Of a stretch of 64,000 nucleotides of DNA, positions 1 through 19,967 are shown piece after piece (within the stretch, counting starts at the first letter, position 1; each line of letters opens with the position of its first letter). The DNA is from an uncultured Acidimicrobiia bacterium (GTDB lineage: Bacteria; Acidobacteriota; Vicinamibacteria; Vicinamibacterales; UBA2999): positions 407,024-471,023 of the forward strand of contig CAWCGQ010000001.1 of the NCBI GenBank assembly GCA_963795125.1, read 5' to 3'. The translations under genes and the position numbers were made by a program. The notes below the pieces were generated by a model, which did no database searches, was not told the origin of the DNA, and saw nothing but the letters and a program-made list of their open reading frames with translations.

Positions 1-279
1 GCGGAACAACGTCGCCACCGAGCGCGCCTCGATCACCTTGCGTTCGTTGAAGTCGGTGACGCAGTGAAAGGCGAGCGCCCCGGCGACGCGCGTCACCGGA
101 TCGAAGTCCATCGACTTGATGTGGCCGTTGCGGCGCACCAGCTCCTCGACCTGCTGCGGGGTCAGCTGCATCGGCACGTTGGCCGGCGCCGCGGCGGCCG
201 AATAGGGGTTGGGGATGCCGCCCTTGAGAAACGCTTTGCCGCTGGCGTCGAACTCGACCGGAAGGTTCTTGAAACACAT
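1..279 (-). CDS. [NiFe]-hydrogenase large subunit, first 93 codons (gene continues beyond the left edge)
   Basis: My reverse-strand translation from ATG at 279-277: MCFKNLPVEFDASGKAFLKGGIPNPYSAAAAPANVPMQLTPQQVEELVRRNGHIKSMDFDPVTRVAGALAFHCVTDFNERKVIEARSVATLFR. The DPVTR..G...(25 aa)...LFR(G) layout is the N-terminal layout of hydrogenase large subunits. GAGG lies a few nt upstream. It is absent from the ORF track because the window edge truncates it. Confidence 0.8.
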   Translation of the reverse strand, partial: MCFKNLPVEFDASGKAFLKGGIPNPYSAAAAPANVPMQLTPQQVEELVRRNGHIKSMDFDPVTRVAGALAFHCVTDFNERKVIEARSVATLFR

Positions 280-290
280 GTGCCGCTACC

Positions 291-552
291 TCAGAGACGA
301 AAGACGCGTGCGGCCGCGCCAAGATGACCGTCGACCACCTGGAGCGCGCCGGCGAGCGTGCCCAAGGCGCCGTTGATGGTGGCGAGTTTCTCGCCGACCG
401 GAACGGTGTGCGCGGCGACCGCTTCGAGCCCGTCGGCAATCGCGGCGACGCTGCGGCTGGCGTCGACGCAGCGCCCACGCGACCATCGAAAGGTACCCGG
501 CGAGCGCCACGACCACGAGGAACACGGTAATCAGCGTCAGGGTCAGCAGCAT
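291..552 (-). CDS. small single-pass membrane protein, paralog 5 of 5 between the hydrogenase S and L genes; one extra base near 466-470 as assembled
   Basis: N-terminus MLLTLTLITVFLVVVALAGYLSMVAWAL (TM helix) comes from the frame of ORF 286..753. Skipping one base near 468 gives VDASRSVAAIADGLEAVAAHTVPVGEKLATINGALGTLAGALQVVDGHLGAAARVFRL* (my translation). This parallels paralog 3 (LNDGLSQIAGGLGVVDGNLSQLAAAL). Its ATG overlaps the upstream stop (TGATG at 550-554). Confidence 0.6.
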
Positions 553-842
553 CACGCACGCTCCGCGCGGCGCGCCAGTGCGGCGGTCGCGCCGTTCAGT
601 TTCTGTTCGATCGCCGAGGCGGTGGTCAGGATGTCGACGGCGGTGGCAATGGTCGTGTCGAGCGCCGGGATGAGCGCGGTATTGCCGGCAATGCCAGCGG
701 CGGCCGTCAGCGCATCGCGCGCGTAGAGTTGAATCGCACGAGCGGCGCGCCACAGGCGATGCAATAGCGCCACCGAAAGCGGCACGAACACCAGCAGCGT
801 CACGGCCAGTCCCGCCGCCCAGATCAATTCAACGGTGGTCAT
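552..842 (-). CDS. small single-pass membrane protein, paralog 4 of 5
   Basis: ORF 552..842 (96 aa) has the N-terminal TM helix LIWAAGLAVTLLVFVPLSVALL, then a helical tail. Its AVDILTTASAIEQK matches AGDILETVQAIEQK of paralog 1. ATGA stop/start overlap at 839-842. Confidence 0.7.
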   Translation of the reverse strand: MTTVELIWAAGLAVTLLVFVPLSVALLHRLWRAARAIQLYARDALTAAAGIAGNTALIPALDTTIATAVDILTTASAIEQKLNGATAALARRAERA

Positions 843-1138
843 CGTCCCTCCTGCCGCTGCAGCGCCGCCGCGAGTTGAGAAAGATTGCCGTCGACCACGC
901 CCAGCCCGCCCGCTATTTGGGAGAGGCCGTCGTTCAGCCGCGGAACCTCATTGGGGATATAGGCGGTCTCGGCCTCAATCGCGCGCAGGCCCAGGCGAAT
1001 CTTGGCGAGGAAACTGGTCGGCGAGCCGCCGGCCGGTTCCAACTGCGCGAGGATCAGATGGAGGAAGATCGCCAGCGCAATGAACAGCGCCGACGCGGCG
1101 AGCACCGACGCAAGCGTCAACCAGGCAAGGGTCGTCAT
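839..1138 (-). CDS. small single-pass membrane protein, paralog 3 of 5
   Basis: From ORF 839..1171, using the internal ATG at 1138: MTTLAWLTLASVLAASALFIALAIFLHLILAQLEP.... That ATG overlaps the upstream stop as TGATG (1136-1140). The tail resembles paralog 5. Confidence 0.65.
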   Translation of the reverse strand: MTTLAWLTLASVLAASALFIALAIFLHLILAQLEPAGGSPTSFLAKIRLGLRAIEAETAYIPNEVPRLNDGLSQIAGGLGVVDGNLSQLAAALQRQEGR

Positions 1139-1464
1139 CACCGTCCTCCTGTGGCGTGTCCGATGACGCACCTGGGGCAGCCCGGACAGCCATTCGCGTG
1201 CGTGGCAATCGCGCCGGTCGCCGCGGCGACGCCGCCGGCAGATGTCAGGATTCGAGCCGCGACGTGATTGGTGTGATGCAGCAGCGACAGTTGAATGGTG
1301 TTGTTCGCCACCTTCTGGCCCGCCGTCCAGATCGCCGACACGCCGTCGTGAATCTGCGTCGAGGTCCGCAGGATCAACGTCAGCAGCGTGGCGACGACCA
1401 GCAGCACCACGACGAAGATGCCGAGCGACAGCAGCCAGATTTGGACGATGGTGTCCTCGGTCAT
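1138..1464 (-). CDS. small single-pass membrane protein, paralog 2 of 5, with C-terminal CPGCPRC motif
   Basis: ORF 1138..1464 (108 aa) has the TM helix IWLLSLGIFVVVLLVVATLLTLIL. It ends ...ATHANGCPGCPRCVIGHATGGR. ATGA overlap with the upstream gene at 1461-1464. Confidence 0.7.
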   Translation of the reverse strand: MTEDTIVQIWLLSLGIFVVVLLVVATLLTLILRTSTQIHDGVSAIWTAGQKVANNTIQLSLLHHTNHVAARILTSAGGVAAATGAIATHANGCPGCPRCVIGHATGGR

Positions 1465-1755
1465 CGCTTCAGCTCCTGCGCGGCGAGCGCGCCCGCGAGC
1501 AGGCCGCCCTTCTGTTCAATCGCCTGCACGGTCTCGAGGATGTCGCCGGCCACCTGATTGGTGTCCTGGAGGCCCCAGATCGGCTGGGTCTGTGTGCGAA
1601 TGGTCTCGACGGCGTGCAACGCGCGGACGGCATCGCCCAGGATCTGTTTTCGCCGTAAGCCAGATCGTGATCAGCAATCCCGCGGCGATCAGGATGACGA
1701 GCGTGGCCACGCCGATCCACAACCGCCACGCCGCCCAGAGATCCGCGTCGCTCAT
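1461..1755 (-). CDS. small single-pass membrane protein, paralog 1 of 5; one extra base in the T4/A4 run at 1647-1650 as assembled
   Basis: MSDADLWAAWRLWIGVATLVILIAAGLLITIWLTAK comes from ORF 1516..1833, internal ATG at 1755. Removing one A of AAAA gives QILGDAVRALHAVETIRTQTQPIWGLQDTNQVAGDILETVQAIEQKGGLLAGALAAQELKR* (my translation). ATGA overlap with the small-subunit stop at 1752-1755. Confidence 0.6.
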
Positions 1756-3066
1756 GATCGGCCTCCATCCTTCGTGACTGAATCGTCGAGGTAATCGCCC
1801 TTGGTCCCCGGACGGTCGGCGCCCCACAGCCACTCTTCCTCACCCGCGCGGCGCCCGGCCTTGCGCGAGCTCATGTGCTGCCACCGCTCGTAGAAAAAAT
1901 GAATCGTCTTGTCGATCGCCGTGGCCGGCTTGACGTGACCCCAGCCGCTCGGCACCTCGCCGAGGCGGTCCCAGCGGACTTCGCGGTTGCTCTCGCGATT
2001 GCTCAGGCGCCGCAGCCGCCGCACCACCGCCCCCACACTGCGCGACGCCAGCGTCGACACCGCCGCGCCCGGAGGGGTCTTGTAGAACGGCGTGAACTTG
2101 TCGGGAAAGCCCGGCATGGTGCAGCCGATGCACACCCCGCCGGCCTTCATGCAGCCGCCCATGTGATTGATGGCGCCGCGCTCGACGATGTTGCAGTTGA
2201 CGACCGGACCCCAGCAGCCGATCTCGACCAGGCACTCCGGGTCGCCGTACTCTTCGGCGAAGGTGCCTTCCTCGTAGTAGCCCGCGCGCGTGCACCCCTG
2301 GTGGACCGTCTTGCCGAACAGCCACGCCGGCCGGCCGAGCTCGTCGAACGCCGGCAGCGGGCCCAGGCCCTGCAGGAACAGCAGGATCGCGAACACCGTC
2401 TCGGTGAAGTTGTCGCCCACCGGCGCGCAGCCGGGGATGTTGATCACCGGCAGGCCGAACGCGCTGCGATAGTCCTTGCCAAGGGCGTCCATCACGCTCA
2501 TCGAGCCGGTGGGGTTGCCCTCGGCGGCCGGAACCCCGCCCCAGGTCGCGCAGGTGCCGATGGCAATGGTCGCCGCCGCGCCCGGCGCCATCGCCTTCAA
2601 CCAGGTCGCGGTCGGCTCGGGATGATGCTCGTAGTACGGTCCCGCGTCGTCCGGCACCGCCTCCACGCCCATGGCGGAAAAATACCCGCCGGTGCGCTGG
2701 GCGATCCGCTCGTCCGCCACGGAGCCTTCGAACACCAGCACGTACGGATCGGCGAGCTTGCCCTCCATGGCGTCGCGGAACGGCTGCACGAAGTCACGCG
2801 CCCGATTCGACGGCCAGGACCGGATGGTGCAGGACGACCTTGGGCATCGCCGGGACCACCCCAAGGAGCAGGCCCTCGATGCCTGGGTTGGTCGCGCCGG
2901 TCACGGCGATCGAACAGCCGTCGCAGCTCATGCCGGCGAGCCAGAAGACGTGGACGTTGCTGAGGGGACCGAGCGGGAGTCGTTCCTTCTTCTCCGCTTG
3001 TGTCACCGACGCTGGGATCGACGGCTGGCCGCCATGGACCTTGTCGCCACCAGGTGCTGCTGACAT
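1752..3066 (-). CDS. [NiFe]-hydrogenase small subunit, no twin-arginine signal; one extra base near 2801-2803 as assembled
   Basis: N-terminal part is in ORF 2794..3090 (VHVFWLAGMSCDGCSIAVTGATNPGIEGLL...HHPVLAVESG). The rest is in ORF 1752..2864 (GTCATWGG, PGCAPVGDN, HQGCTRAGYY, CLVEIGCWGPVVNCN, GGCMKAGGVCIGCTMPGFPD). These are the FeS-cluster Cys motifs of small subunits. ATG at 3066 follows GGAGAGGGG. No RRxF motif in the N-terminus. Confidence 0.9.
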
Positions 3067-3086
3067 CGTTGGGCCCCTCTCCGCAA

Positions 3087-4174
3087 TCAACAGATACGCG
3101 GTAACTGTTCACCGGCGAGCATCGGCACGATGCGACTGCCGCCGGCGACCGACTTCATGACCACCGTGCCGCGATGCTCGGCGACGACCTCGCCGATGAC
3201 CGCGGCGTCTCGGCCGAGCGGATGCGCGCGCATCGCCGCGCACCAGAGTCGTCGGCCTGCGCGGCGTCGACAATGGCGATCAACTTTCCCTCGTTGGCGA
3301 CGTAGAGCGGATCCAGGCCGAGAATTTCGCACGCCGCCTTCACCGAATCGCGAACCGGCAGGGCGCGCTCGTTCAGCTCGATGCCGACCTTCGACGCCGC
3401 CGCAATCTCGTTCAGCGCGCTCGACACACCGCCGCGGGTGGGATCGCGCATCGCGCGAATGCCGTCGCAACTCTGCAACATCAAGCCGGTCAGGCCGTTG
3501 AGCGCGGCGGTGTCGCTTTCAAGCGCGGTCTCGAATTCGAGGCCTTCGCGCACCGACATGATCGCCATGCCGTGGTCGCCGATGGTGCCGGATACGACAA
3601 TGCGGTCACCCGGACGCGCCGCCGCCACCGACAGCGCGACATCGTCCGCGATCAAACCAACGCCGGTTGTGGTGATGAAAATCTGATCGCCCTTGCCGCG
3701 ATCGACCACCTTGGTATCGCCCGCGACCACGGTGACGCCGGCTTCGTCCGCAGCCGCCTTCATCGACTCGGCGATGCGCCGCAGATCGTCGAGCGCCAGA
3801 CCTTCCTCGAGGATGAACGCCGCCGCGAGGAACATCGGCGTGGCGCCGCCGACGGCCAGATCGTTGACGGTGCCATGCACCGCAAGGCGGCCGATGTCGC
3901 CGCCCGGAAAAAAGATCGGCCGGACCACGAAACTGTCGGTGGTGATCGCCAGACGCGCGCGCCCGAGGCCGGGCAACGCGCACGACGCCTGATCTTCCAG
4001 CTGGTTGAGGACGTCGTTGCCGAGCGCCGGCAGGAACAGGCGCGACACCAGGTCCGCGCTCAGCCGCCCGCCGCTGCCGTGTCCGAGGAGGACGCGGTCA
4101 TAGCCGGCGAACGGCGCCGGGCAACTGCCGAGCAGTTCGCTGATGACGCCCTTGGCCACGGCCGACTCGCTCAT
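3087..4174 (-). CDS. hypE: hydrogenase maturation protein HypE; frame break near 3235-3250 (net +2/-1)
   Basis: MSESAVAKG...[31 protein letters not shown]...GDTKVV is in the frame of ORF 3155..5224. The C-terminus [19 protein letters not shown]...GEQLPRIC* is in ORF 3087..3470. ATGA overlap with the hypD stop at 4171-4174. Confidence 0.9.
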
Positions 4175-5283
4175 ACCGCCTCCGCGTGCGTCGTCTTGAG
4201 GCGGCCGTAGGCGAAGTAGGCGGCGCAGGCGCCTTCGGCGGAAACCATCGTCGCGCCCAACGGAGACTCGGGCGTACAGATCGTGCCGAACGCCGGGCAG
4301 TCGTGCGGCTTCTTCTGGCCGCGCAGGATCAACCCGCTGATGCAGATCGGTCGATTCGGCGGTGTCGATGGCGTGCACGTCGAAGCGCTTCTCGGCGTCG
4401 AAGGCGCGGTACTTGTCGCGCAGGCGCCACCCGCTTGCGGAATCGAGCCCGACGCCGCGCCACTTGCGATCGCATACCTCGAACACGTCGTCGATGAGCG
4501 CCACCGACGCGCGGTTGCCGCCGCGCGTCACGACGCGGCCGTATTGGTTTTCGAGCCGCGCCGCCCCGGTTTCGAGCTGCTCGACCGTGCGCAGGATGCC
4601 GTCGAGCATGTCCACCGGCTCGAAGCCGGTAATCACGATCGGCACCTGAAAGCGCTCGACCAGCGGCTCGTACTCTTCGAAGCCGACCACGGTGCACACG
4701 TGGCCGGGGCCGAGAAACGCCTGGACGCGATTGTCGGGCGCGTCGAGAATCGCGGCAATCGCCGGCGGCACCAGCACGTGCGAGACCAGCACGCTGAAAT
4801 TGGTGAGCCCGCGACGCGCTGCCAGGGAGACGGCCATCGCATTGGCCGGCGCCGTGGTTTCGAACCCGATGGCGAAGAACACCACCTCGCGCGCGGGGTT
4901 CGCGGCCGCGATCTGGACGGCGTCCAGCGGCGAATACACCACGCGAACGTCGGCGCCTTGCGACTTGAGCTGCAGCAGATCGCCGCGCGAGCCGGGCACG
5001 CGCAGCATGTCGCCGAACGAGCAGAAGGTCACCTCGGGGCGCGACGCGATCGCGTGGGCGCGATCGAGCACCTCGAGCGGCGTGACGCAGACCGGGCAGC
5101 CCGGGCCGTGCACCAGTTCGACTCCCGGGCGGCAGAATCTCGTCGATGCCGTATCTGACGATGGTGTGGGTCTGGCCGCCGCACACTTCCATGATCGTCC
5201 AGGGGCGGGTGACGCGGCCGGCAATCGCGCGCACCAGCTTGTTCGACGACGGCGCCGTCGCGGAATTCATCGAGGAACTTCAT
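4171..5283 (-). CDS. hypD: hydrogenase maturation protein HypD; three single-base frame breaks (about 5258, 5124, 4345)
   Basis: Four pieces: MKFLDEFRD (ORF 5029..5373 frame); [28 protein letters not shown] (ORF 4329..5270); [15 protein letters not shown]...[11 protein letters not shown]...ITGFEP (ORF 3155..5224). The fourth is my translation of the last stretch: [52 protein letters not shown]...*. Confidence 0.9.
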
Positions 5284-5518
5284 CGAGCTCCCCGAGTTGG
5301 TCCATGCCTTCGAGGAACGCGAATACGCGATGGGCCTCGACCTCGTCGATTTGCGCCAGCGCGAAACCGACATGGACGAGCACGTAGTCGCCGGGCTTCG
5401 CTTCGCGCACGTGGTCCATGCAGACGCGCTTGGACACCCCGCCGAAGTCGACCTTGCCCATCAGAATGCCGTGTTCGAGAAAGGTCTCGACGACTCGTCC
5501 CGGTATTCCCAAGCACAT
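5267..5518 (-). CDS. hypC: hydrogenase maturation chaperone HypC
   Basis: ORF 5267..5524. The canonical start is MCLGIPGRVV (Cys2) at 5518. The gene is small (83 aa) and sits directly between hypF and hypD. Confidence 0.9.
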   Translation of the reverse strand: MCLGIPGRVVETFLEHGILMGKVDFGGVSKRVCMDHVREAKPGDYVLVHVGFALAQIDEVEAHRVFAFLEGMDQLGELDEVPR

Positions 5519-5520
5519 CG

Positions 5521-7800
5521 TCAACGCCCCTTTACGCCAGTGAACCGCGCCGCGGCTACCGCTACCTGCCCGAGAGACAGACCGCCATCGCCGGGCGGCA
5601 TTTCCTGATGACGATACACCCTGAAACCCTCGGATACGAGTTGAGTTTCAACCTCGACCGTGAGGATGCCGTTGGCGAACACCCCACCCGATAAGGCGAT
5701 GTCTGCAATTCCCGTGCGGTCGCGCAGCGACCGCGCCACCGCCACCGCCGCCTGCGCCAGGGTGGTGTGGAAACGGCGGGCGATGACGGAGGGAGTAACG
5801 GCGTTGGTAACGTCCGTGTGCAGGGCGCGGACGAGCGGCCGCGTGTCGACGATGAGCGGCCACTCCAGGTCGTTCTCGACGCCGACCTGGTAGACCACAT
5901 CGTCGTCCGATTGCTCGGCGAGGGCTTCGAGCCACATCGCCGCCTGCCCTTCGAAGGTCATGACCGGCGCGGCGCCGCAGAGCGACGCGACGGCGTCGAA
6001 CAATCGTCCGACGCTCGAGGTCATCGGCGCGTTCAGACGCTGTTCGATCATCTGCCGCACCACGCCGCGCATCGATCGATCGAGTCCGGCGAGCGCGCGA
6101 TTGTCGTCGATGCCCGCATCGCGCAGATGGGAAAACGCCATCCGCCACGGCTCGCGTGCCGCCCGGTCGCCGCCTGGTTGGGCGACGTAGCGGAAGTGTG
6201 CCGCCCGCTCGAACCCCGCCCGATCGGCGATGAGGAATTCGCCGCCCCATACACAGCCGTCCGGCCCCCAGCCGGCGCCGTCCCACGCGAGCCCGATCAC
6301 CGGACCTTCGAGGCCATGCTCGGCCATGCACGACGCGACGTGGGCGTGATGGTGCTGGACGCCGATGATGTCAACGCCGGGGCGATCCAGCGCGAAGCGC
6401 GTCGACGCGTAGTCCGGGTGCAGGTCGTGCGCGACGATCGCCGGGGTCAGGTCGAACAGCTGCTCGTAGAGCGCGACGTCGCGCTCGAAGGCGTCGAATG
6501 CCGTCAGGTCGTCGAGGTCGCCGGCGTGGTGGCTGACGATGGCGGTGTGTCCGTGGGCCAGCGCGAAGGTGTTCTTCAGCTGGCCGCCGACCGCGAGGAT
6601 GGGTAGCGGGCAGTCAAACGACAGCGCGGTCGGGGCCGGCGCCCAGCCACGCGATCGCCGGATCACGATCGGCCGGCCGCCGGCGCGACGCACGACCGAG
6701 TCCTCGCAGCGAACGCGTATCTCGCGGTCGTGGAGTAGCCAGAGATCGGCAATGCCGCGCAGCCGAGCGATTGCCTCGGCGTTGTCGACGGCGATGGGCT
6801 CGTCGGATCGGTTGCCGCTCGTCATCACCAGGGGTCGCCCGCCTACCGCGCGCATCAGCAAATGATGCAGCGGGGTGTAGGGCAGCATGACGCCGAGCCG
6901 CGTGTGCTCGGGCGCCACCGCCGACGCGATTACCGCGGCCGCGTGGGCCCGCTGCTTCAGCAGGACAATCGGCCGGGCGCTCGATCCGAGCAGCGCGGCT
7001 TCCTCCTCTGAGAGCTCACAGAGCCGGTCGGCGTCCGCGCCGTCAGTCACCATGACGGCGAATGGCTTGTCGTCGCGATGCTTGCGCGATCGCAGGGCCG
7101 CGATTGCCTCGCTGTTGCCCGCATCGCAGGCGAGGTGGAAGCCGCCGAGCCCCTTGATGGCCACGATCTGCCCGGCGGAGAGGGCAGCGGCAGCGGCCGC
7201 GATCGGGTCGTCCACACCGCGGCCGTCAGCGTCGATCGCCTGGAGCGATGGACCACAAGCTGGGCAGGCAATCGGCTCGGCGTGAAACCGGCGGTTGCCT
7301 GGCGATTCGTATTCCGTCCGGCAATTCGCGCACATCTCGAACCGCGCCATCGTCGTTTGCGCGCGATCGTAGGGACTGCCGGTGATGATGGTCAGGCGCG
7401 GCCCGCAGGCGGTGCAGTTGATGAACGGATAGCGATATCGCCGGTCTGACGGATCGCCGAGTTCGTCGAGGCAGGCGTCGCAGGTCGCCGCGTCGGGCGG
7501 CACGAGCACCGCCGAGCCCGCCGCCGCGCCGCTGTCGGCAATCTGAAAGTGGGTGTCGCCGCGGATCTGCAGTTGCCGCGTGGCAATCGAGTGGATGCGC
7601 GCCAGTGGCGGCGCGCCGGCAATCAACTCGCGTTCGAACTCGGCCAGCGCGGACGGGTCGCCTTCCACTTCCACCGCCACCAGTCCGCCGTGATTGGCCA
7701 CGAAGCCGCGCAGAGCGAGCCGGGTGGCGACGCCATGAACGAACGGACGGAAGCCGACACCCTGCACCACGCCGCGGATGTCGAAGGCCCGGCGTTGCAT
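5521..7800 (-). CDS. hypF: carbamoyltransferase HypF
   Basis: ORF 5521..7893. Acylphosphatase-like N-terminus (FDIRGVVQGVGFRPFV), two Zn-finger motifs (CDACLDEL...YPFINCTACGPR; CANC...CPACGP), and YrdC and Kae1-like regions. The likely start is ATG at 7800, 3 nt after the permease stop. Confidence 0.9.
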   Translation of the reverse strand: MQRRAFDIRGVVQGVGFRPFVHGVATRLALRGFVANHGGLVAVEVEGDPSALAEFERELIAGAPPLARIHSIATRQLQIRGDTHFQIADSGAAAGSAVLVPPDAATCDACLDELGDPSDRRYRYPFINCTACGPRLTIITGSPYDRAQTTMARFEMCANCRTEYESPGNRRFHAEPIACPACGPSLQAIDADGRGVDDPIAAAAAALSAGQIVAIKGLGGFHLACDAGNSEAIAALRSRKHRDDKPFAVMVTDGADADRLCELSEEEAALLGSSARPIVLLKQRAHAAAVIASAVAPEHTRLGVMLPYTPLHHLLMRAVGGRPLVMTSGNRSDEPIAVDNAEAIARLRGIADLWLLHDREIRVRCEDSVVRRAGGRPIVIRRSRGWAPAPTALSFDCPLPILAVGGQLKNTFALAHGHTAIVSHHAGDLDDLTAFDAFERDVALYEQLFDLTPAIVAHDLHPDYASTRFALDRPGVDIIGVQHHHAHVASCMAEHGLEGPVIGLAWDGAGWGPDGCVWGGEFLIADRAGFERAAHFRYVAQPGGDRAAREPWRMAFSHLRDAGIDDNRALAGLDRSMRGVVRQMIEQRLNAPMTSSVGRLFDAVASLCGAAPVMTFEGQAAMWLEALAEQSDDDVVYQVGVENDLEWPLIVDTRPLVRALHTDVTNAVTPSVIARRFHTTLAQAAVAVARSLRDRTGIADIALSGGVFANGILTVEVETQLVSEGFRVYRHQEMPPGDGGLSLGQVAVAAARFTGVKGR

Positions 7801-7802
7801 CG

Positions 7803-8570
7803 TCAGCGCCGCCGCGTCGCGCCCTCGGCGACCAGGTTGCAGCCGAGCACGGTGAGGGTGATCGCCAGGCCTGGGAAGAGCGACATCCACCACGCCTCAC
7901 GCATGAACCGCAAGGCGCCGCCGAGCAGCGTCCCCCAGCTCATCACCGCCGAATCGCCGAGCCCCAGCAGGCTCAGCCCCGATTCAATCAGAATCGCGCC
8001 GCCGGCGTGATACGAAATCTGCGCGCCCATCACCGCCACCGATGCCGGGAGTACGTGCCGCCAGAGAATGGCCAGGTCGCCCGCGCCGGCGGCGCGCGAC
8101 GCCAGCACGAAATCGCGCTGCAGCGTGCCAAGGGCCTGCGCCCGGAACAACCGCGCGGTGATCGGCCACTCGGTAAGCCCGATGGCGAGGATGATCAATG
8201 CGAACGAGTGGCCGAACAGGCTGACGATGGTGACTACCAGGAGAAAGCGCGGCAGGGCCTGGAAAAAGTCGGTGGCCCGCATCAGCAGCTGATCGATCGC
8301 TCCGCCGCGAACCGCCGCGAGCCCGCCGACCAGCAGGCCCAGGCCCGCTGCGATCGCGGCCGCCGAGGCACCGGCGTAGAGCGAGGTGCGCGCGCCGTGC
8401 ACGACGCCGCTGAACACATCTCGTCCGAGGTCGTCGGTGCCAAACGGGTAGTCCCAGCCAGGCGGGAGCAGCGGTGGCGCTTGCGTCGAGAACGGGCTTC
8501 CCGGCGCCAGCCAGGACGCGCCGGCGGCGAGCGCGGCGAGCAGGACGAGGATGGCGACGCCTGGCTTCAT
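7803..8570 (-). CDS. ABC transporter permease, peptide/nickel (DppC/NikC-like) family
   Basis: ORF 7803..8570 (255 aa). It contains PFGTDDLGRDVFS and a binding-protein-dependent transport signature region (LASRAAGAGDLAILWRHVLP). Confidence 0.85.
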   Translation of the reverse strand: MKPGVAILVLLAALAAGASWLAPGSPFSTQAPPLLPPGWDYPFGTDDLGRDVFSGVVHGARTSLYAGASAAAIAAGLGLLVGGLAAVRGGAIDQLLMRATDFFQALPRFLLVVTIVSLFGHSFALIILAIGLTEWPITARLFRAQALGTLQRDFVLASRAAGAGDLAILWRHVLPASVAVMGAQISYHAGGAILIESGLSLLGLGDSAVMSWGTLLGGALRFMREAWWMSLFPGLAITLTVLGCNLVAEGATRRR

Positions 8571-8574
8571 GGCG

Positions 8575-9543
8575 TCATGCCAGCCTGACCCGCGGATCGA
8601 GCCAGGCGCATGCCGCGTCCGACAGCGCGTTGGCGCACACCACGGCGATCGAGATGAACAGGAAGGCCGACGTGACCAGCGGATAGTCGCGGTGCAGCGC
8701 CGCGTGCAGGATCACGTTGCCGAGGCCCGGCCAGCCGAACAGATATTCGGTGAACGCCGCGCCGCCGACGATTTGCGGCGCGTGCTGGCCTGCGAGCGTC
8801 GCCACCGCCGACAGCGCCTGCGGCCACGCGTGGCGGAGTAACAGTTGTCGCGCCGACAGGCCGCGCGCGCGCGCCGCCTGCATGAAGGTGTCGTCCATCG
8901 CCTCGAGCAGCGCCGCGCGCGTCACCCGCGCGACGACCGCCATGAACGGTATCGAGAGGGTGACCGCCGGCAGCACCAGATGCTGCAACACGTCGAAGGC
9001 GTAGTCCGCGCCAAACAGGGTTTCACGCGCGGTGGTGAGGCCGCCAACCGGAAGCAGGCGGAGCTTGACCGCGACGAGAAGAATCAGCACCTGGCCGGTC
9101 CAATAGATCGGCGCCGAATACATCAGCGCCGACGCCGAGCGAATCGCGCCATCCATCAGGCGCGAGCGCCACACCACCGACGCCGAGGCAAGCGCCGCGC
9201 CGCCGACGATCGACAACACCAGTGCCGTGGCGCCAAGCAGCAGCGAGGCCGGTGCGTATCGCGCCAGTACGGAGCCCACCGGCGCCTCGTAGGTGAACGA
9301 ATAGCCGAAGTCGCCGGTGAGGAGGGCGCGGGTGTAGCTGGCGAACTGCTCGGTGAGCGGCCGATCCAGCGCGAACTTCGCGCGCATGTCGTCGTAATAG
9401 GCCGGGCTGCCGCCGTCACCCGCGAGCAGGTACACCGGATCGCCCGGCGCCAGGTGGATCAACAGGAACGTCAGGACGGTAATGCCGACGACTACCGGCA
9501 CTGCCAGCACCAGCCGCCGCGCCGCCCAGTGCGCGAACGTCAC
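8575..9543 (-). CDS. ABC transporter permease, peptide/nickel (DppB/NikB-like) family
   Basis: ORF 8575..9582. The likely GTG start at 9543 overlaps the binding-protein stop (GTGA). LIHLAPGDPV near the N-terminus and ARARGLSARQLLLRHAWPQAL are typical of DppB-type permeases. Confidence 0.85.
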   Translation of the reverse strand: MTFAHWAARRLVLAVPVVVGITVLTFLLIHLAPGDPVYLLAGDGGSPAYYDDMRAKFALDRPLTEQFASYTRALLTGDFGYSFTYEAPVGSVLARYAPASLLLGATALVLSIVGGAALASASVVWRSRLMDGAIRSASALMYSAPIYWTGQVLILLVAVKLRLLPVGGLTTARETLFGADYAFDVLQHLVLPAVTLSIPFMAVVARVTRAALLEAMDDTFMQAARARGLSARQLLLRHAWPQALSAVATLAGQHAPQIVGGAAFTEYLFGWPGLGNVILHAALHRDYPLVTSAFLFISIAVVCANALSDAACAWLDPRVRLA

Positions 9544-11083
9544 CGCGCCTTCCGCACCGTTTCGGCAAAGGCGCCGGTCCACAGCCGGAAGCCGGTGAAC
9601 TCGGTGCGATACGCGCGCAGGCCTTCGGAATCGATCAGCCAGAAATAGGGCACCTCGTCGGCCAGGATCTTCTGGATCTCGACGTAGGCCCTGCGGCGCT
9701 CGGCGCGCTCCTGCGCCGCCGCGCCTTCGTCAAACAGCGCATCGACGCGCGCATTGCGATAGCCGGCGCCGTTCGAGAACGGATACGGGCCGATGTTCGA
9801 TGACACGTAAACGCGCCGAACCCCGATTTCCGGATCCGATCCGTTGCAGAACGAGGCCATGCCGAGGTCGAACGTCTTTCTTGACGAAGACCTGATCGAC
9901 CTGCGAGTTGAAATCCATCGACCGCAGATTGAGCGTGATGCCCGCGGCACTCAACTGGTCGCGCAGCGCCATCGCCAGCCGCTGCTGCGTTTGCGCATGC
10001 GTAAACGTGATCGCGATGCGCTCGCCGTTGGTCCCCGCTGTGAACCCGGCTTCGTCGAGCAGTCGGCGCGCTTCGCCGGCATCGTGGGCGTACTGCCGGA
10101 CATCCGGCGTGTAGGCCCACGCCAGCAGGTGACTGATCGGTCCGGTCGCCGGCTGGCCCTGGCCAAAGTACACGCGATCGACGATCGCCTGGCGGTCGAG
10201 CGCGTGTGCGAACGCGCGCCTCACGCGCAGATCGCTGAAGGGCGGTTTGGTCACGTTGGGAATCAGCACGTCCTGGCAGATTGAGCCGCCCGACCCCCCG
10301 GTCCCGGCAACGACGGCGATGCCGGGGGTCTGCTGGAGCCGCTGGATCTCTGGCCCCGAGACGCTGCCCGCGTAATCGATCTCGCCGCGCTCGAGCGCCG
10401 CGATTGCCGTGCTCGCTTCGGGCAGGATCTGGAACACCAGCCGATCGACGCCCGGGAGGTCCTTGCGGAAATAGTCGGGATTGCGCTCGAGGACGACCTG
10501 CGACCCCGGCGCGTAGCTCGCGAACCGGAACGGCCCGGTGCCGATGGGATGCGGCGGCCCCGACGCTTTCATCACGTCGAGTCCGGCGAACCTGTGCTTC
10601 GCAATGATCGACGCTTCGACGACGTCGAGCCGTTGGAGAAGCGCGCTGTACGGGTGCTTCAGCCGGAACACCACGGTGTGATCGTCAGGCGCGTCGATGC
10701 CGAGCATCAGGGGTTCGAGCGCCGCCCTGGTCCGGGAGTGGTACTTGAGCAGCGCCTCTTCGAACGTGAACTTGACGTCGGCGGCGGTGAATGGCGCGCC
10801 GTCGTGCCACCGCACGTCGCGACGCAGCCGGAATCGATAGGTGCGTCCCCCGTCCTCGGTGTCCCAGGCTTCGGCGAGTTCGGGAACCGGATTCAGATTC
10901 TCGTCGAGGCCAACGAGCCCGTTGAAGATCTGGTCCGTCACCGGGTGGGTGTTGCCCGATGTCGTCACGGCAGGATTGAGCGCGCCCAGGATCGCCGGCC
11001 TGCGAGACGACCAGCGTCGTTTGATTGGAAGGGGATCTGTCGCAGGCGACGCTTAACAGCAGCACGAACACCAGTCGGCGCAC
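9540..11083 (-). CDS. ABC transporter substrate-binding protein, family 5 (peptide/nickel type), exported; two single-base frame breaks (about 10980 and 9873)
   Basis: Signal/lipoprotein-like N-terminus MRRLVFVLLLSVAC (ORF 10685..11083). Core in ORF 9730..10968 (FNGLVGLDENLNPVPELAEAWD...TYRFRLRRDVRWHDG). C-terminus in ORF 9540..9950 (FDLGMASFCNG...VPYFWLI). Confidence 0.85.
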
Positions 11084-12845: not shown

Positions 12846-14377
12846 AACATGCAGTGATGGTTTTGCTGACGGTGGTCTCGTTCGCCAGTTGCCGGCGTGG
12901 TGCTGAACCGACGCCGCCGCCCGACGACGGCCCGGAGCCGCTCAGCGTCACGCGCTGGACCGGGCGAACCGAGCTCTTCGCCGAATATCCATCGCTCGTC
13001 GCCGGCCAGACCTCGCGGTTTGCGATCCACCTCACGACGCTCAGTCCGTTCGAGGCGGTGACCGAGGGCACCGTCGAGGTGCAGCTCACCGACAGCACGG
13101 GACAGGCGCAATCCTTTTCCGTGGATGCCCCGTCACGACCGGGAATTTTCGGCGTCGACGTGAAGCCCGCGCGCGCGGGGAAGTTCGACTTGATCATCTT
13201 GTTACGCGGCAAGTCCATGACCGACACCCACACCGTCGGCGCCGTCGATGTCTTCAGCGACGCGGGGGCCGCGGCGTCTGCCGCGGCAGCGATGCCCGAG
13301 TCGGGGGCCGAGACATTCAGTTTCCTGAAGGAGCAGCAGTGGGTCCTCGACTTCGCAACAACTGTTGTGGAGCAACAGCGGCTGCGCGAGTCGATTCGAG
13401 TGCCGGGCGAAATTGTGCCGGCGCCAGGAGCCGAAGCCGACGTCTTCGCGCCGTTCGACGGACGCCTGGCCTCGGTCGTTTCCCTGGCGCCGGGTACTGC
13501 CGTCTCGGCCGGACAGGAACTGGCCCGGATTCAACCGCCGCCGGGGGCTGCAGCAGACTTGCCGCAGCTGGAACGCGGCCGGACACATGCCGCATCGGTG
13601 CTGGAGCAGGCATCGCGCGATCGCGAGCGGGCCGAACGGCTGGTGGCCGCGGGGGCGGCGCCCGAGCGGCGGCTCGACGACGCACGGGCGGCGGAAGCGC
13701 AGGCGGCTGCCGCTCTGAAGGCGGCGGAGGCGCAGCTTGCGCAGTTCAATGCGTCACGGTCGGCCGGCCCCGCCGGAGCGGCGGGGCAGTTCGTGATCCG
13801 CGCGCCGATTGGCGGCGTCATCGTCAACAGATCGGCGGCGGCCGGGATGAATGTCAGCGCCGGCACGGCGCTCTTCCACCTGGTGAACCCGTCGTCGATC
13901 CTGGTGGTCGGCCACATTCCCGAGGGACAGGTCGCGCGCGCGCGGTCCGTATCGGGCGCGCAGATTGAAGTGCCCGGCGCGGCATCCATGCGACCGGCGG
14001 GCAAACTGGTCTCGCTCGGCCGGGTTCTCGACCCTCAATCACGCACGCTGCCGATCACGTTCGCCGCCGACCTCGGGCTGCTGGGAGCGGCCGTGGGGCA
14101 AGCGGTGTTGGTGCAGCTGCTATTCGATCAGACGGCGGCGAGTGCGGTCGTGCCGGCGTCAGCGATTGTTGACGACGCCGGGAGCCCAATCGTGTTTGTG
14201 CAGGTGGAGGGTGAGGCCTTTGAACGCCGCGCGGTGACGCTTGGCACCCGCGAAGGCGAGCTCGTTCAAGTGATGGCGGGCGTGAGGCCAGGCGAACACA
14301 TCGTGGTGAGGGGTGCGTATCTGGTGCGGCTGGCATCGCTGTCGACGTCGGTGCCGGCGCACGGGCACGTGCATTGA
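12836..14377 (+). CDS. efflux RND periplasmic adaptor (CusB/CzcB/HlyD family) with extra N-terminal domain
   Basis: ORF 12836..14377 (513 aa). GTG start follows AGGAG. Lipobox-like LLTVVSFASC. Coiled-coil hairpin (AERLVAAGAAPERRLDDARAAEAQAAAALKAAEAQLAQ) and barrel regions typical of membrane-fusion proteins. Confidence 0.85.
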   Translation: MALKHAVMVLLTVVSFASCRRGAEPTPPPDDGPEPLSVTRWTGRTELFAEYPSLVAGQTSRFAIHLTTLSPFEAVTEGTVEVQLTDSTGQAQSFSVDAPSRPGIFGVDVKPARAGKFDLIILLRGKSMTDTHTVGAVDVFSDAGAAASAAAAMPESGAETFSFLKEQQWVLDFATTVVEQQRLRESIRVPGEIVPAPGAEADVFAPFDGRLASVVSLAPGTAVSAGQELARIQPPPGAAADLPQLERGRTHAASVLEQASRDRERAERLVAAGAAPERRLDDARAAEAQAAAALKAAEAQLAQFNASRSAGPAGAAGQFVIRAPIGGVIVNRSAAAGMNVSAGTALFHLVNPSSILVVGHIPEGQVARARSVSGAQIEVPGAASMRPAGKLVSLGRVLDPQSRTLPITFAADLGLLGAAVGQAVLVQLLFDQTAASAVVPASAIVDDAGSPIVFVQVEGEAFERRAVTLGTREGELVQVMAGVRPGEHIVVRGAYLVRLASLSTSVPAHGHVH

Positions 14378-14384
14378 GGCCGCG

Positions 14385-17300
14385 ATGATCGACGGGCTGA
14401 TTCGCTGGTCGCTTGGCCACCGCGCGCTCGTGCTCGCGGCGGCGGCGGCATTCTCGGTGTGGGGCCCCTGGTCGGCCTGGCACATGCCACTCGATGTGTT
14501 GCCCGATCTCACCGCGCCGGCGGTCACCATCCTGGTCGAAGCACCGGGCATGGATCCACTCGAAATCGAGTCGCTGGTGACCTTTCCGATTGAGTCGTCG
14601 CTCAACGGCGCCGCGGGCGTTCGCCGGGTGCGTTCGGCCACCGCGGTCGGCGTCGCGGTCATCTGGGTCGAGTTCGATTGGGGCCAGGATATTTCCCGGG
14701 CTCGTCAGATCGTCACCGAAAAACTGAGTCTCGTCTCGGCATCGTTGCCGGCTGGCGTGGGGCCGCCGTTTCTCGCGCCGGTCTCGTCAATCATGGGCGA
14801 GGTGCTGTTTGTCGGGCTCGAGTCCGATCGTCATTCCGGGATTGAGTTGCGCACCACGGCCGACACGGTGATCCGCCGCCGGCTGCTGGCGGTGCCGGGC
14901 GTGTCGCAGGTAATCGCGACCGGCGGAGAGCAGAAGCAGGTACGAAGTGGTCGTCGAACCGTCGCGGCTGCGTTCGTACGGGGTCACGCTGGCCGACGTC
15001 GAGCAGGCACTGTCTGCCGCCAATCGCAACGCCACCGCGGGATTCCAGGTGTCGGAAGGCCAGGAATACCTGATTCGCGGGCTGGGCCGTTTCACCAGCG
15101 TCGCCGACATCGGCGCGGTGGTGGTGCGCGCCAACGCCCAGACGCCGGTGCTCGTCCGGGATCTGGCGGCGGTGCGTGAAGGCGCCGGCATCAAACGTGG
15201 TGATGGCTCCCACAACGCGCGTCCGGCGGTGATTCTCGGGATCCAGAAGCAGCCGGGCGCCAACACCCTCGAACTCACGGAACGCATCGACACCACGCTG
15301 CTGGAGATTCAACAGGCGTTGCCCGAGGGGATGCAGATCCAGCCGAATCTGTTCCGCGGCGCGGACTTCATTCAACAGGCGTTGAGCAATCTGTTCCAGG
15401 CACTGCTCGAAGGCGCCGGTCTGGTGATGGTCGTTGTGATCGTGTTCCTGATGAACGCCCGTGCCGCCGGCATCACGCTCGTCGCGCTCCCGCTGTCCCT
15501 GATCGCCGCCGCCGTGGCGATGAACTGGTCGGGCGTCACGCTCAACACCATGAGCCTGGGCGGTCTGGCCATCGCGATCGGCGAGCTGGTGGACGATGCG
15601 ATCATCGATGTCGAGAACGTCGTCAGGCGGCTGCGCCAGAACGCGGCGCTGCCGCAGGCGGAGCGGACCAACACGCTGGCCGTCGTTTATCACGCCAGCA
15701 CCGAAGTGCGCGCGTCGGTGGTGTTCGCGACCGTCATCGTCGCGATCGTGTTCGTGCCGTTGTTCATGCTGGGCAGCGTCGAGGGCCGGCTGCTGCGACC
15801 GCTGGGCTTCGCCTACGTCGTGGCGCTGGTCGCGTCGCTGGTGGTGGCGCTGACCGTCACTCCGGTGTTGTGTTCACTGCTACTGCCCAAGGCGAAGTTG
15901 ATTGCGAGCGGCGCAGAACCCTGGCTGACGCGCCGGCTCAAACAGCTCTATGAGCCATGGCTGCAGCGCGCGGTCCGATCGTGGCGTGTGGTGATCACCG
16001 GCGCGACGGTGGCATTGATGGCCGCCCTGGTCGCCCTGTTCGCCGCCGGCCGTTCGTTCCTCCCTGCGTTCAATGAAGGTGCGCTGACCGTCAGCGCCGT
16101 GACGATCCCCGGCACGACGCTGGCAGACTCGAACGCGCTCGGCAATGCGCTGGAGCGGCTGCTGCTGAGCGTTCCGGAAGTGGCGTCCACGGCGCGGCGC
16201 ACCGGCCGCGCCGAGCTGGACGAACACGTGCAGGGGGTGGAGTCGTCGGAAATCGATGTGCGCCTCGAGATGCAAGACCGCTCCAAGGAAGAGGTCCTTC
16301 GCGACATCCGGGACAAGGTGTCGCTCCTGCCGGGCACGAACGTGACGGTGGGGCAGCCGATCTCGCATCGCATCGATCACATGCTGTCGGGCACGAGGGC
16401 CAATATCGCCGTGAAGATCTTCGGTGACGATCTCGCGGTTCTGCGATCGCTCGCGCAACAGGTCCAGGCGCAAATGGCGGGCGTGGACGGAGTGGTTGAC
16501 CTGTCGACCGAGATGCAGACGGAGATCCCGACGCTTCGGGTCAAGGTTGATCCGGAGTTGGCGTCGCGACATGGCCTGCCCGCCGGCGTGGTGGCCGAGA
16601 CGCTCCAGACGGCGCGTGTCGGCCGGCAGGTGGGGCAGGTGCTCGAAGGCCAGATCGGGTTTCCATTGATGGTCCGCTATGGATCCGAGGCATCGAGCGA
16701 TCTCGAGGCCATCGGCAACACCGAGATCGACACTCCAGGCGGCGCGCAGATTCCGCTGTCGGCCGTCGCGAGGATTCAACGCGATCGAGGGCCCAACTTC
16801 GTCATGCGCGAGAACGTGCAGCGGCGCATCGTGGTCCAGAGCAATGTTGCCGGGCGCGATCTGCGCAGCGTGGTCAGCGACATCCAGGCGGCGGTGGCGG
16901 CCAACGTCAAACTGCCTGCCGGCGTTCGCGTCGAGTACGGGGGCCAGTTCGAAAGCGAAGCCGCTGCCTCCCGCCAGCTGCTGTGGCTGTCGCTCGGCGT
17001 GGTGGTCGCGATTTTCTTCGTCCTGATGACGGCGTTCGGCTCCACGCGCGATGCCGTCCTGGTCATGCTGAACCTGCCGCTCGCCCTGATTGGCGGCGTC
17101 GCCGGCGTCTATTTGTCCGGCGGCGTGCTGTCGGTGGCCTCGATCGTCGGATTTATCACCCTGTTCGGCATCGCGACCCGCAACGGCATCATGCTGGTGT
17201 CCCACATCCGCCACCTTCAGCTGCACGAGGGCGTCACCGACTTCATGGCGGCGGTCGTCAGAGGTGCGACCGAGCGCCTGGTGCCAATTCTCATGACCGC

Positions 17301-17472
17301 CCTTGCGGCCGGGCTCGCGCTGGTGCCAATCGCGATGTCGGCGGGTGAGGCGGGCAGTGAAATCCAGGCGCCGATGGCCCTCGTGATCCTGTGCGGCCTG
17401 GCGAGCTCAACCGCCTTGAACATGATCGTCGTGCCGGTGCTGTACGCGCGTTTTGGCCGGCGGGTCAGCTGA
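14385..17472 (+). CDS. heavy-metal efflux RND pump (CusA/CzcA family); one extra G at about 14939-14940
   Basis: MIDGLIRWSL...PDLTAPAVTILVEAPGMDPLEIE is in ORF 14313..15179. It joins ORF 14947..17472 at GGEQKQ|YEVVVEPSRL once one G is removed. The TM4 region LAIAIGELVDDAIIDVENV is closer to the CusA-type pattern than to the CzcA DFG pattern. Confidence 0.9.
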
Positions 17473-18931: not shown

Positions 18932-18938
18932 TGATCGA

Positions 18939-19967
18939 TCACTCCGCCAGCATCGCGACGGCAGACTGCACGTCGGCAGCATAACCATCGGCGCCAGTCA
19001 TCTGCCACTGGTGCTCGACGCGGAATGCCGCGCCGCCCACGACGATGCGCGGCGAGTGATCCAATGCGCGAACCGCGGCGACGAGGCCCGAAGCCTGGTG
19101 GAGGTTGAACAGCATGGTGACAGAGATCCCGAGCACATCCGGTTTGGCGTCTCGAACGGCGGCGATGATTGCCGGCAGCGGAAGGTTGCTCCCCAGGAAC
19201 TGCACGCGCCATCCCTGCGCTTCGAGCATGTCGCCCACCATCAGCGCGCCGACGTGATGAAGCTCCCCGGGGACACCGGTCAGGACGACCGAGCCCCGGT
19301 CGACATCCGGGCGTTCGATGCGCTCGAACAGCTGCGCCATCACGAACTGGGTCACGGCGGTTGCCATGTGTTCCTGCGCGACCGTAATCGCGTTTCGCTC
19401 CCACTGGCGGCCGACCTCGTAGAGGCCGTCCTGCAGGACGTCGCTGTAGACGGCTTCGATCGTCGCGCCGGTGCGCAGGGCTTCGGTCGCGATGGTCAGG
19501 GCCACTCGGCGATCGCCACGCACGGCCGCTTGCACGAACATCCGGCAGGTGAGCGCCAAGGGCCCGTCGGTTTGTCCCGTGGGCTGCTCGGCCTGTGGAT
19601 GTTCGTCGGGAAAGCACATGAAGCGGGCAACGACGTCCTGCTGTTCGTTGGACAGGAGTGCCGCTGCGGCATCCTGCACTTGCGATAAATTTTCGCGCAG
19701 AAAGCCCCGGTCGATACCGCGGGATTCGAGCACGCGTGTCGTCCACTGCACGTAGTCCTTGTAAGCTGCCGGCGAGTCGCTCTCGATTGCGGCGGCGAGA
19801 AACTGAATGTGGAACCGTGCGTCTTCGATCCCCGCCAGTCGCGCACGATCCCCGTAGCGCGCCACCCAGTCTGGATGACGTGTCAAGAACGCATCGGTGA
19901 CGGCCTCGGCGATATGCTGTTCTTCACGGCGCAGGGTACGGATCAAGGCAGAATTGCGGGAGATCAT
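18939..19967 (-). CDS. cobalamin (B12)-binding domain protein with N-terminal helical (globin/phycobilisome-like) domain
   Basis: ORF 18939..19967 (342 aa). Helical-bundle cap region (VYSDVLQDGLYEVGRQWERNAITVAQEHMATAV). Rossmann B12 region with GELHHVG (D/ExHxxG-type), ...GISVTM..., ...VVGGAAF. It ends 7 nt before the kinase start. Confidence 0.75.
   Translation of the reverse strand: MISRNSALIRTLRREEQHIAEAVTDAFLTRHPDWVARYGDRARLAGIEDARFHIQFLAAAIESDSPAAYKDYVQWTTRVLESRGIDRGFLRENLSQVQDAAAALLSNEQQDVVARFMCFPDEHPQAEQPTGQTDGPLALTCRMFVQAAVRGDRRVALTIATEALRTGATIEAVYSDVLQDGLYEVGRQWERNAITVAQEHMATAVTQFVMAQLFERIERPDVDRGSVVLTGVPGELHHVGALMVGDMLEAQGWRVQFLGSNLPLPAIIAAVRDAKPDVLGISVTMLFNLHQASGLVAAVRALDHSPRIVVGGAAFRVEHQWQMTGADGYAADVQSAVAMLAE

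Follow-up and report, generated by a model that had tools for sequence, protein, structure and literature searches.

A stretch of 64,000 nucleotides (contig CAWCGQ010000001.1 of assembly GCA_963795125.1, positions 407,024 to 471,023 of the forward strand; hereafter called the window) carries at its left edge part of a [NiFe]-hydrogenase locus. Here, five small genes for single-pass transmembrane (TM) proteins, P1 to P5, lie between hylS and hylL, the genes of the small and the large subunit, and their products are likely the membrane anchor of this enzyme. Coordinates are window positions, and the hyl and hyp genes discussed are all on the minus strand, in the order hypF, hypC, hypD, hypE, hylS, P1–P5 and the start of hylL. 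The structural and TM genes are the following (classes A and B are explained below):

1752..3066, minus strand: hylS, small subunit of a group 1l [NiFe]-hydrogenase; 437 aa after dropping an extra base at ~2796; Pfam domains Oxidored_q6 and NiFe_hyd_SSU_C
1461..1755, minus strand: P1, class A; 97 aa once one A is removed from the AAAA run at 1646-1650; frameshifted as given
1138..1464, minus strand: P2, class A; 108 aa, intact; exact protein present in a public collection
839..1138, minus strand: P3, class B; 99 aa, intact
552..842, minus strand: P4, class A; 96 aa, intact
291..552, minus strand: P5, class B; 86 aa once an extra base at ~465-466 is removed; frameshifted as given
1..279, minus strand: 5' end of hylL, large subunit; first 93 codons, leaving the window at the left edge; recognized by tblastn to related loci

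A preliminary description of this DNA, made from the sequence alone, had reported five open reading frames (ORFs) of 87–108 aa between the two structural genes. Five genes are indeed located there, with P1 and P5 frameshifted and with sizes of 97, 108, 99, 96 and 86 aa. The peptides quoted in that description had been read silently through the frame changes in P1, P5 and hylS, and these frames had to be corrected. Re-reading of the sequence located the stop/start overlaps exactly where they had been placed. They are ATGA at hylS/P1 (stop TGA 1754-1752, start ATG 1755-1753), at P1/P2 (stop 1463-1461, start 1464-1462) and at P3/P4 (stop 841-839, start 842-840), and TGATG at P2/P3 (stop 1140-1138, start 1138-1136) and at P4/P5 (stop 554-552, start 552-550). 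The P5 stop (293-291) is followed by the hylL ATG (279-277) after an 11-nt spacer. A Shine-Dalgarno-like GGAG or AGGAGG is present 6-10 nt 5' of every start, and neither a sigma-70-like promoter nor a convincing terminator was found inside 1-8200.

An arrangement of this kind defines group 1l of the [NiFe]-hydrogenases, in which five ORFs for small TM proteins, named HylTM1-5, separate the structural genes (Ortiz et al., bioRxiv 10.1101/2020.08.06.239558). The preliminary description had tentatively named such a subgroup, group 1l, which matches this publication. In the window, five single-pass TM ORFs lie between hylS and hylL, two of them needing a one-base correction. The proximal-cluster motif of HylS is of the four-Cys type, reading GMSCDGCS where 5AA5_A has GLGCDGDS in the HMMER alignment. 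HylS also carries a C-terminal extension of about 70 aa, since the alignment to 5AA5_A covers residues 31-366 of 437 and ends at residue 339 of the 351 of that chain; for group 1l, an extension of about 100 aa relative to group 1h has been described (bioRxiv 10.1101/2020.08.06.239558). Plasmid-borne 1h homologues cover HylS only to residue 338-370 and lack the extension. HylS is 47-49% identical to group 1h small subunits as compared to 60-83% identity within the TM-linked clade, which separates it from 1h, in keeping with group 1l being a sister of group 1h and clearly distinct from it. One of the TM proteins, P2, ends in the C-terminal tri-cysteine motif reported for HylTM4 (Supplementary Note 1 of bioRxiv 10.1101/2020.08.06.239558). 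Judged from its sequence, the hydrogenase of the window has the published features of group 1l.

The best PDB match was the group 1h enzyme 5AA5, with 5AA5_A for the small subunit (E 8e-108) and 5AA5_C for the orthologous large subunit (E 5e-153); no group 1l structure was present among the PDB sequences searched. As stated in the preliminary description, HylS has no twin-arginine (RRxF) signal and no cytochrome b gene accompanies it. The N-terminus of HylS, MSAAPGGDKVHGGQPSIPASVTQAEKKERLPLGPLSNVHVFW, was read directly and contains no RR motif, and no TAT_signal Pfam match was obtained, which sets HylS apart from the class exported by the twin-arginine translocation (Tat) system. No cytochrome b gene was found, and P1–P5 do not qualify as PF01292 proteins, having one TM helix each, no Pfam or NCBIfam match and no conserved histidine in the TM segment.

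Relatives were obtained by scanning one genome per species for HylS, which yielded 80 loci (single loci are given as L numbers), and homologues of the TM proteins were then sought by tblastn and family hidden Markov models (HMMs). Several of the closest loci, namely L001 (MGR_bin286), L003, L006, L034, L040 and L044, belong to MAGs (metagenome-assembled genomes) of the study of Ortiz et al., whose direct homologues share 60-91% aa identity. The hylL fragment of 93 codons shares 76-80% identity with hylL of the Mackay Glacier MAGs L001 and L003, and the orthologous hylL of L081 encodes 630 aa with PF00374. A homologous five-gene cluster is carried by the Bacteroidota MAG L075. In relatives (L016, L075), hylL is followed by two unknown ORFs, the Rieske (+NifU-like) protein HylE and a HycI/HupD protease; the corresponding genes would lie to the left of the window. 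A search of a plasmid collection for an annotated 1l locus returned only group 1h.

Homologues of P1–P5 were present in about 60 loci from about 10 phyla, and essentially every locus with enough flanking sequence had them. In a large protein collection, 348 homologues of P4 were found at E<=1e-3. Their lengths are all about 95-110 aa, and no Pfam domain or informative name is attached to any of them. For P2, the collection gave 229 homologues. An exhaustive search with a class-A profile HMM returned 427 cluster representatives among 1.84 billion, nearly all of about 100 aa. Domain fusions of the 'Rosetta stone' type were sought among these 427 representatives and rejected, as the few long matches were frameshifted or fused gene calls and one eukaryotic repeat protein. 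None of P1–P5 matched Pfam or NCBIfam, and neither profile searches against the PDB nor Foldseek with the P4 model yielded more than helical hairpins without significance.

Selection was assessed as dN/dS by the Nei-Gojobori method against five relatives (dS 0.45-2.1). Values were 0.13-0.26 for P1, 0.14-0.27 for P2, 0.10-0.28 for P3, 0.09-0.36 for P4 and 0.05-0.10 for P5, with 0.06-0.09 for HylS. All five small genes are under purifying selection. P5 is the most conserved of the five, with 82-91% aa identity to its Vicinamibacterales orthologues, and is constrained as strongly as HylS. Spurious ORFs in GC-rich DNA were considered and excluded by the homology in about 60 loci, the signal in GC content at third codon positions and dN/dS. 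The profile search and the selection check (dN/dS 0.05-0.36 in all five genes) that the preliminary description had proposed thus both showed ORFs that are conserved and do not evolve neutrally.

Each of P1–P5 contains one hydrophobic 19-mer (Kyte-Doolittle 2.4-3.1) within the first 32 residues and nothing comparable later, in line with the single N-terminal TM helix proposed initially. As had also been noted, P1, P2 and P4 have acidic N-termini. Past the TM helix come basic residues, with P3 as the least clear case; the preliminary description had seen none flanking the helix of P3. Among 43-54 orthologues per family, the N-flank of the helix holds 0-0.7 Lys+Arg and up to 1.65 Asp+Glu, and the 15 residues past the helix hold 1.5-3.1 Lys+Arg. 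Because of this charge bias and the positive-inside rule, the orthologues support the earlier assignment, and an N-out/C-in topology is predicted for P1–P5, least clearly for P3. The tails would therefore be cytoplasmic, which fits an enzyme without a Tat signal. They contain many small and apolar residues and few charged ones. No conserved histidine was found in the TM segments among the orthologues examined.

In P4, the TM helix ends on the cytoplasmic side with a conserved LLHRxWRAA, and a GNT turn is conserved as well. The AlphaFold2 monomer of P4 (mean predicted local distance difference test score, pLDDT, 85.7) is all-helical, with a helix 3-54, a turn at the conserved GNT and a helix 59-95. 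The AlphaFold2 monomer of P2 (pLDDT 82) has one helix 3-92 followed by a Cys loop. The C-terminus of P2 reads H-x3-C-x2-C-x2-C (H89, C93, C96, C99), with CPGCPRC at residues 93-99, and this motif occurs in 52 of 54 orthologues of the five-gene type, including those of Bacteroidota and Planctomycetota. The invariant histidine four residues before the three cysteines (H-A-x2-C-P-G-C-P-x-C) brings four potential metal ligands within 11 residues. In a profile search, P2 only touched the polyferredoxin subunit 7bkb_L, at a non-significant E of 2.6.

The paralogy of the five proteins was analyzed by profile-profile comparison (hhalign) of the tails only, with reversed-sequence controls. P1, P2 and P4 form class A (probability 94-98%, E 1e-14 to 8e-8), and P3 and P5 form class B (probability 96.8%, E 2.8e-10). 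Comparison of one class with the other gave only weak similarity (23-44%, E 2e-4 to 9e-4; controls, 7e-3 or higher). Thus, the resemblance of P1 to P4 and of P3 to P5 seen by eye in the preliminary description holds, while its single set of five paralogues is better described as two classes with weak similarity between them.

Gene arrangement was counted in the 63 loci in which both structural genes, S and L, were seen:

S-[1-2-3-4-5]-L as in the window: about 42 loci; Vicinamibacterales, Gemmatimonadota, Methylomirabilota, Planctomycetota, Bacteroidota and some Proteobacteria
four genes between S and L, A-B-A-B: 5 loci, plus L069, where L was not reached; Chloroflexota
the same four genes (A-B-A-B) about 2 kb upstream on the same strand, S and L adjacent: 8-11 loci; Blastocatellia/Pyrinomonadaceae
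four genes divergently upstream: 4 loci; Actinomycetota/Thermoleophilia
no TM genes seen: 1 locus (L065), with the upstream flank cut off

The four-gene clusters between S and L are those of L069, L071, L076 and L078-L080. The relocated clusters lie at about 3500-5100 in L052, L055, L057, L058, L067, L068, L070 and L073, and the divergent ones at about 2500-5800 on the opposite strand in L062, L072, L074 and L077. Linkage of the TM genes to this hydrogenase clade is strict (about 62 of 63 loci), even when they are relocated upstream or divergent. They are obligate companions of this clade, but in some loci they lie outside the interval from S to L. In the Chloroflexota and Blastocatellia loci examined, cysteine is completely missing from the first A-type protein of the four-gene sets. 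The five-gene form looks as if one A-type gene had been added to the four-gene form.

The frames of P1, P5 and hylS are each broken by one extra base relative to intact relatives, as was seen when the window was aligned to them. P1 begins with MSDADLWAAW...ITIWLTAK and resumes in another frame as QILGDAVRALHAVETIRTQ...ELKR, the switch lying at the AAAA run 1646-1650 (~1648). P5 begins with MLLTLTLITVFLVVVALAGYLSMVAWALR and resumes in another frame as DASRSVAAIADGLEAV...RVFRL, with the switch at CGT-C-GAC around 466. In hylS, ...HHPVLAVESGA is followed in the other frame by DFVQPFRDAMEG..., with the switch at GCG-T-GAC around 2796. The hypF-hypC-hypD-hypE block (3087..7893), directly upstream of hylS on the same strand, is affected as well:

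7893-5521, minus strand: hypF; by synteny and Pfam in the relatives L083/L086
5524-5267, minus strand: hypC; by synteny and Pfam in the relatives L083/L086
about 5284-4172, minus strand: hypD; three extra bases (~5243, 5125 and 4350); boundaries approximate
about 4175-3087, minus strand: hypE; two extra bases (3248 and 3241); boundaries approximate

All eight frameshifting events within 5.3 kb are +1 insertions, without any deletion or premature stop. In the close short-read relatives L081-L086, the genes are intact (hypD 369 aa, hypE 361, hylS 437/438, hylL 630), and the small genes encode 97, 108, 99, 96 and 86 aa, i.e., the corrected sizes of P1–P5. Since these short-read relatives are intact, the frameshifts of the window are most likely consensus errors of a long-read MAG and not biology. 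Programmed frameshifting was excluded, as the relatives are in frame at every site. An origin of the frameshifts in this window copy alone was excluded as well, because the public protein collection already contains split HylS products of 90 aa and 338 aa, encoded on the 2,622,034-bp contig that also gave the exact P2, P3 and P4. P1, P5 and HylS do not occur there in corrected form. The indel sites were not significantly associated with methylation-type motifs (TCGA, GTCGAC, GATC and others).

It could also be argued that the locus is decaying, with the frameshifts in hylS, P1, P5, hypD and hypE being real, inactivating mutations. The eight single-base insertions are packed closely, they stand in the public record, and they are unevenly spread, with none in hypF (2.4 kb) or in a 6.8-kb ORF of another part of the window. 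Decay is nevertheless very unlikely, because only +1 insertions occur, the amino-acid sequences are otherwise strongly constrained, genes of the housekeeping type are split too, and the source contig of 2.6 Mb comes from a MAG and is typical of long-read assembly. In addition, P1 is also split in L028, a locus of a long-read MAG (MFD; 7272-7448).

Genes are also split elsewhere in the window, at 14313-17472, 33171-34557 and 41392-43414: the gene of a class A penicillin-binding protein (Transgly + Transpeptidase) is in at least three pieces, an AcrB-like pump of the resistance-nodulation-division type begins only at Pfam profile position 187, and a histidine kinase is cut within HisKA. Such split genes across the window point to indel noise throughout the assembly, so gene calls here need frame checks. 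Users of this public record should be aware that hylS, P1 and P5 are split in it or missed by gene callers. Irregular small genes were also observed in two other loci: L061 (Sphingomicrobium MAG, 8089-8289) has a P2 without the Cys motif and a truncated P4, and L066 has an in-frame stop at ~7800 just ahead of the Cys motif.

Much of the framework for interpreting these genes is published. A role of the HylTM proteins as anchor and electron relay has been proposed, and 12-30% identity has been reported among HylTM1-5 (bioRxiv 10.1101/2020.08.06.239558). In an AlphaFold3 model, HylTM1-5 intertwine as tube-like scaffolds that anchor a cytosolic (HylLS)2 core, with the distal clusters placed near the membrane, next to the TM domains (PMC13554262, Nat Commun 2026). 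H. roseosalivarius, which bears this hydrogenase, oxidizes atmospheric H2 (PMC13554262). P1..P5 probably correspond to HylTM5..1. The order of the accessions (HylL SMB94678, HylS SMB94698), together with the place of the tri-Cys protein, suggests a published numbering that starts at the hylL side. The published locus and the window share the order hylS, five single-pass TM genes, hylL, with the tri-Cys motif in the second gene after hylS, and also the HylS C-terminal extension, the four-Cys proximal motif, the missing Tat signal and the neighborhood of hypF/C/D/E and ABC-transporter genes. Nothing essential differs, except that the window copy has frameshifts in P1, P5 and hylS. Hence, both the synteny and the tether/electron hypothesis are already published, and the window holds one more, error-containing copy.

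As the HylTM1-5 of this locus, P1–P5 would be accessory subunits of a cytoplasm-facing, Tat-independent group 1l uptake hydrogenase, co-transcribed and translationally coupled with hylS and hylL. Each would have one N-out/C-in helix and, on the cytoplasmic side, a helical tail of about 60 residues rich in Ala, Gly and Thr, and the five tails may pack as a hetero-oligomeric helical bundle of two A/B-type pairs and an extra A-type subunit. The docking site of this bundle might be the C-terminal extension specific to HylS of group 1l, close to the distal [4Fe-4S] cluster, and in this way the soluble (HylLS)2 core would be kept at the inner membrane face. It is likely that the five proteins serve as subunits that anchor the enzyme to the membrane, with their cytoplasmic helices bundled and docked on the HylS extension. 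The tether put forward in the preliminary description agrees with the literature, the predicted topology, the Tat-less HylS with its 1l-specific extension and four-Cys proximal motif, the linkage and the purifying selection, and this part appears well supported by sequence evidence, in contrast to the hypothetical coupling to electrons or quinone. For the latter, it can be speculated that the module passes electrons to the quinone pool via a metal or Fe-S site on the H-x3-C-x2-C-x2-C of P2 or, alternatively, that the bundle brings quinone to the distal cluster.

Several known systems offer comparison. Group 1h (Hhy/Hof; C. necator PDB 5AA5) is the closest solved structure for both subunits and is likewise cytosolic, Tat-less and of the O2-tolerant type, with a Rieske/NifU-like partner (HhyE as compared to HylE). 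It differs in having adjacent S and L genes without TM genes, CDGD with an Asp ligand, no C-terminal extension and only the 47-49% identity given above. Cytochrome b anchors (HyaC/HoxZ, PF01292) have the same presumed role, namely membrane attachment and transfer of electrons to quinone. However, they are one four-helix di-heme protein encoded after the large subunit, and they serve a periplasmic, Tat-exported enzyme. In contrast, the window encodes five single-pass proteins between S and L, without a conserved heme-ligand histidine and for a predicted cytoplasmic enzyme. HucM is a single protein that forms a homo-oligomeric stalk, and its mechanism as a quinone conduit reportedly emerged from cryo-electron microscopy of Huc. 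Like the TM proteins, HucM (group 2a Huc of M. smegmatis, PDB 7UTD/7UUS) would be a helical, membrane-associated scaffold of a cytosolic hydrogenase, one that oxidizes atmospheric H2, and possibly a quinone conduit. It shows no detectable sequence similarity to P1–P5, and the window has five different single-pass proteins in its place.

Several observations weigh against an anchoring and coupling role of the five proteins. The Rieske/NifU-like HylE encoded downstream in relatives could be the real electron acceptor. The TM helices lack conserved pairs of histidines, which argues against heme, and they contain no recognizable quinone site. The Cys/His motif is absent from the four-gene variants of Chloroflexota, Blastocatellia and Actinomycetota, which argues that an Fe-S site on P2 is not a core function of the family. 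The AlphaFold2 monomers disagree, with a hairpin for the P4 tail and a straight helix for the P2 tail. No H2 was consumed by two marine isolates that have group 1l enzymes. The literature search, in which only the two works cited above mentioned HylTM, found no experiment showing a HylTM protein in the complex, in the membrane or carrying electrons. Finally, were the frameshifts real, the hydrogenase of this organism would be dead.

In the boldest version of the coupling role, the HylTM set is a previously unrecognized respiratory module, in which an ancestral A-B-A-B set of two ancient protein classes expanded to a pseudo-symmetric A-A-B-A-B bundle and the added P2/HylTM4 contributes, at its tail end, a His(Cys)3-ligated Fe-S cluster that lengthens the electron wire of the hydrogenase to membrane quinone without cytochrome b; this would be rather unlikely. 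A more modest role, in which the bundle just tethers the enzyme, electrons leave via the soluble HylE as proposed for HhyE of group 1h, and the P2 motif is a structural Zn site, has to be taken into account as a possibility, albeit a somewhat doubtful one. In its favor, HylE (Rieske + NifU-like) is conserved 3' of hylL in relatives and in the published cluster, four-gene variants do without the Cys motif, and no heme or quinone motif is seen in the TM helices. However, the published AlphaFold3 model sets the distal clusters beside the TM domains, H-x3-C-x2-C-x2-C, invariant in the five-gene type, looks like ligands of the His(Cys)3 or ferredoxin type, and five subunits seem elaborate for a mere tether.

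Instead, the extended tails might make up a hydrophobic tube through which quinone rises from the membrane to the distal cluster, a function like that of HucM arisen without homology. While P2 models as a continuous 90-residue helix, the tails are small/apolar-rich with few charges, and the AlphaFold3 model contains 'tube-like structures' (PMC13554262), P4 models as a hairpin rather than as an extended stalk, and no sequence similarity was found to any PDB chain, the Huc entries included, so that such a conduit is unlikely. It is highly improbable that the enzyme requires the small proteins just for a time, e.g., during membrane targeting or the insertion of cofactors, and that they are no subunits of its mature form. 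The operon does encode hypFCDE and, in relatives, a HupD protease, and no report of co-purification of the small proteins with the enzyme was found. However, translational coupling between two structural genes suggests stoichiometric co-production, P5 is constrained as strongly as HylS, and the AlphaFold3 model predicts a stable complex. The preferred reading is that of membrane-anchoring subunits.

Group 1l enzymes have been reported as the dominant hydrogenases of Antarctic desert soils and occur in many phyla (bioRxiv 10.1101/2020.08.06.239558; PMC13554262). The HylTM proteins, which lack relatives in Pfam, NCBIfam and the PDB, are prime candidates for the link of these enzymes to the respiratory chain. 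To what is published, the present analysis makes modest additions: the two protein classes, the four-gene ABAB variant without Cys motif, the invariant histidine before the three cysteines, the clusters relocated upstream or divergent in Blastocatellia and Actinomycetota, and the constraint on P5 like that on HylS. These comparative results may help in future characterization of the complex.

Directly upstream of hypF, two BPD_transp_1 permease genes and a gene for an SBP_bac_5 solute-binding protein are located at 7803-10968 (minus strand), and L086 has the same neighborhood. Family 5 of the solute-binding proteins includes NikA. The transporter may be a nickel importer that serves hydrogenase maturation. 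PF00528 is included in the figure legend of the published 1l cluster (bioRxiv 10.1101/2020.08.06.239558).

Further observations were made elsewhere in the window. On the minus strand at 60183-63406, two adjacent ORFs of 540 and 544 codons give a strong signal of coding; neither matched Pfam at E<=1e-4. In an uninterrupted ORF of 2,280 codons at 21142-27984 (plus strand), residues 5-1508 include TamB-like regions (DUF748, YhdP, TamB), residues 1764-1841 are a POTRA domain and residues 1968-2280 an Omp85 barrel. As TamA and TamB are usually two distinct proteins, either this ORF is a genuine fusion, or an assembly error has removed a stop codon. At 17465-18988 (minus strand), a histidine kinase (HisKA + HATPase_c) with an N-terminal antibiotic biosynthesis monooxygenase-like (ABM) domain is encoded, which is an uncommon sensor architecture.

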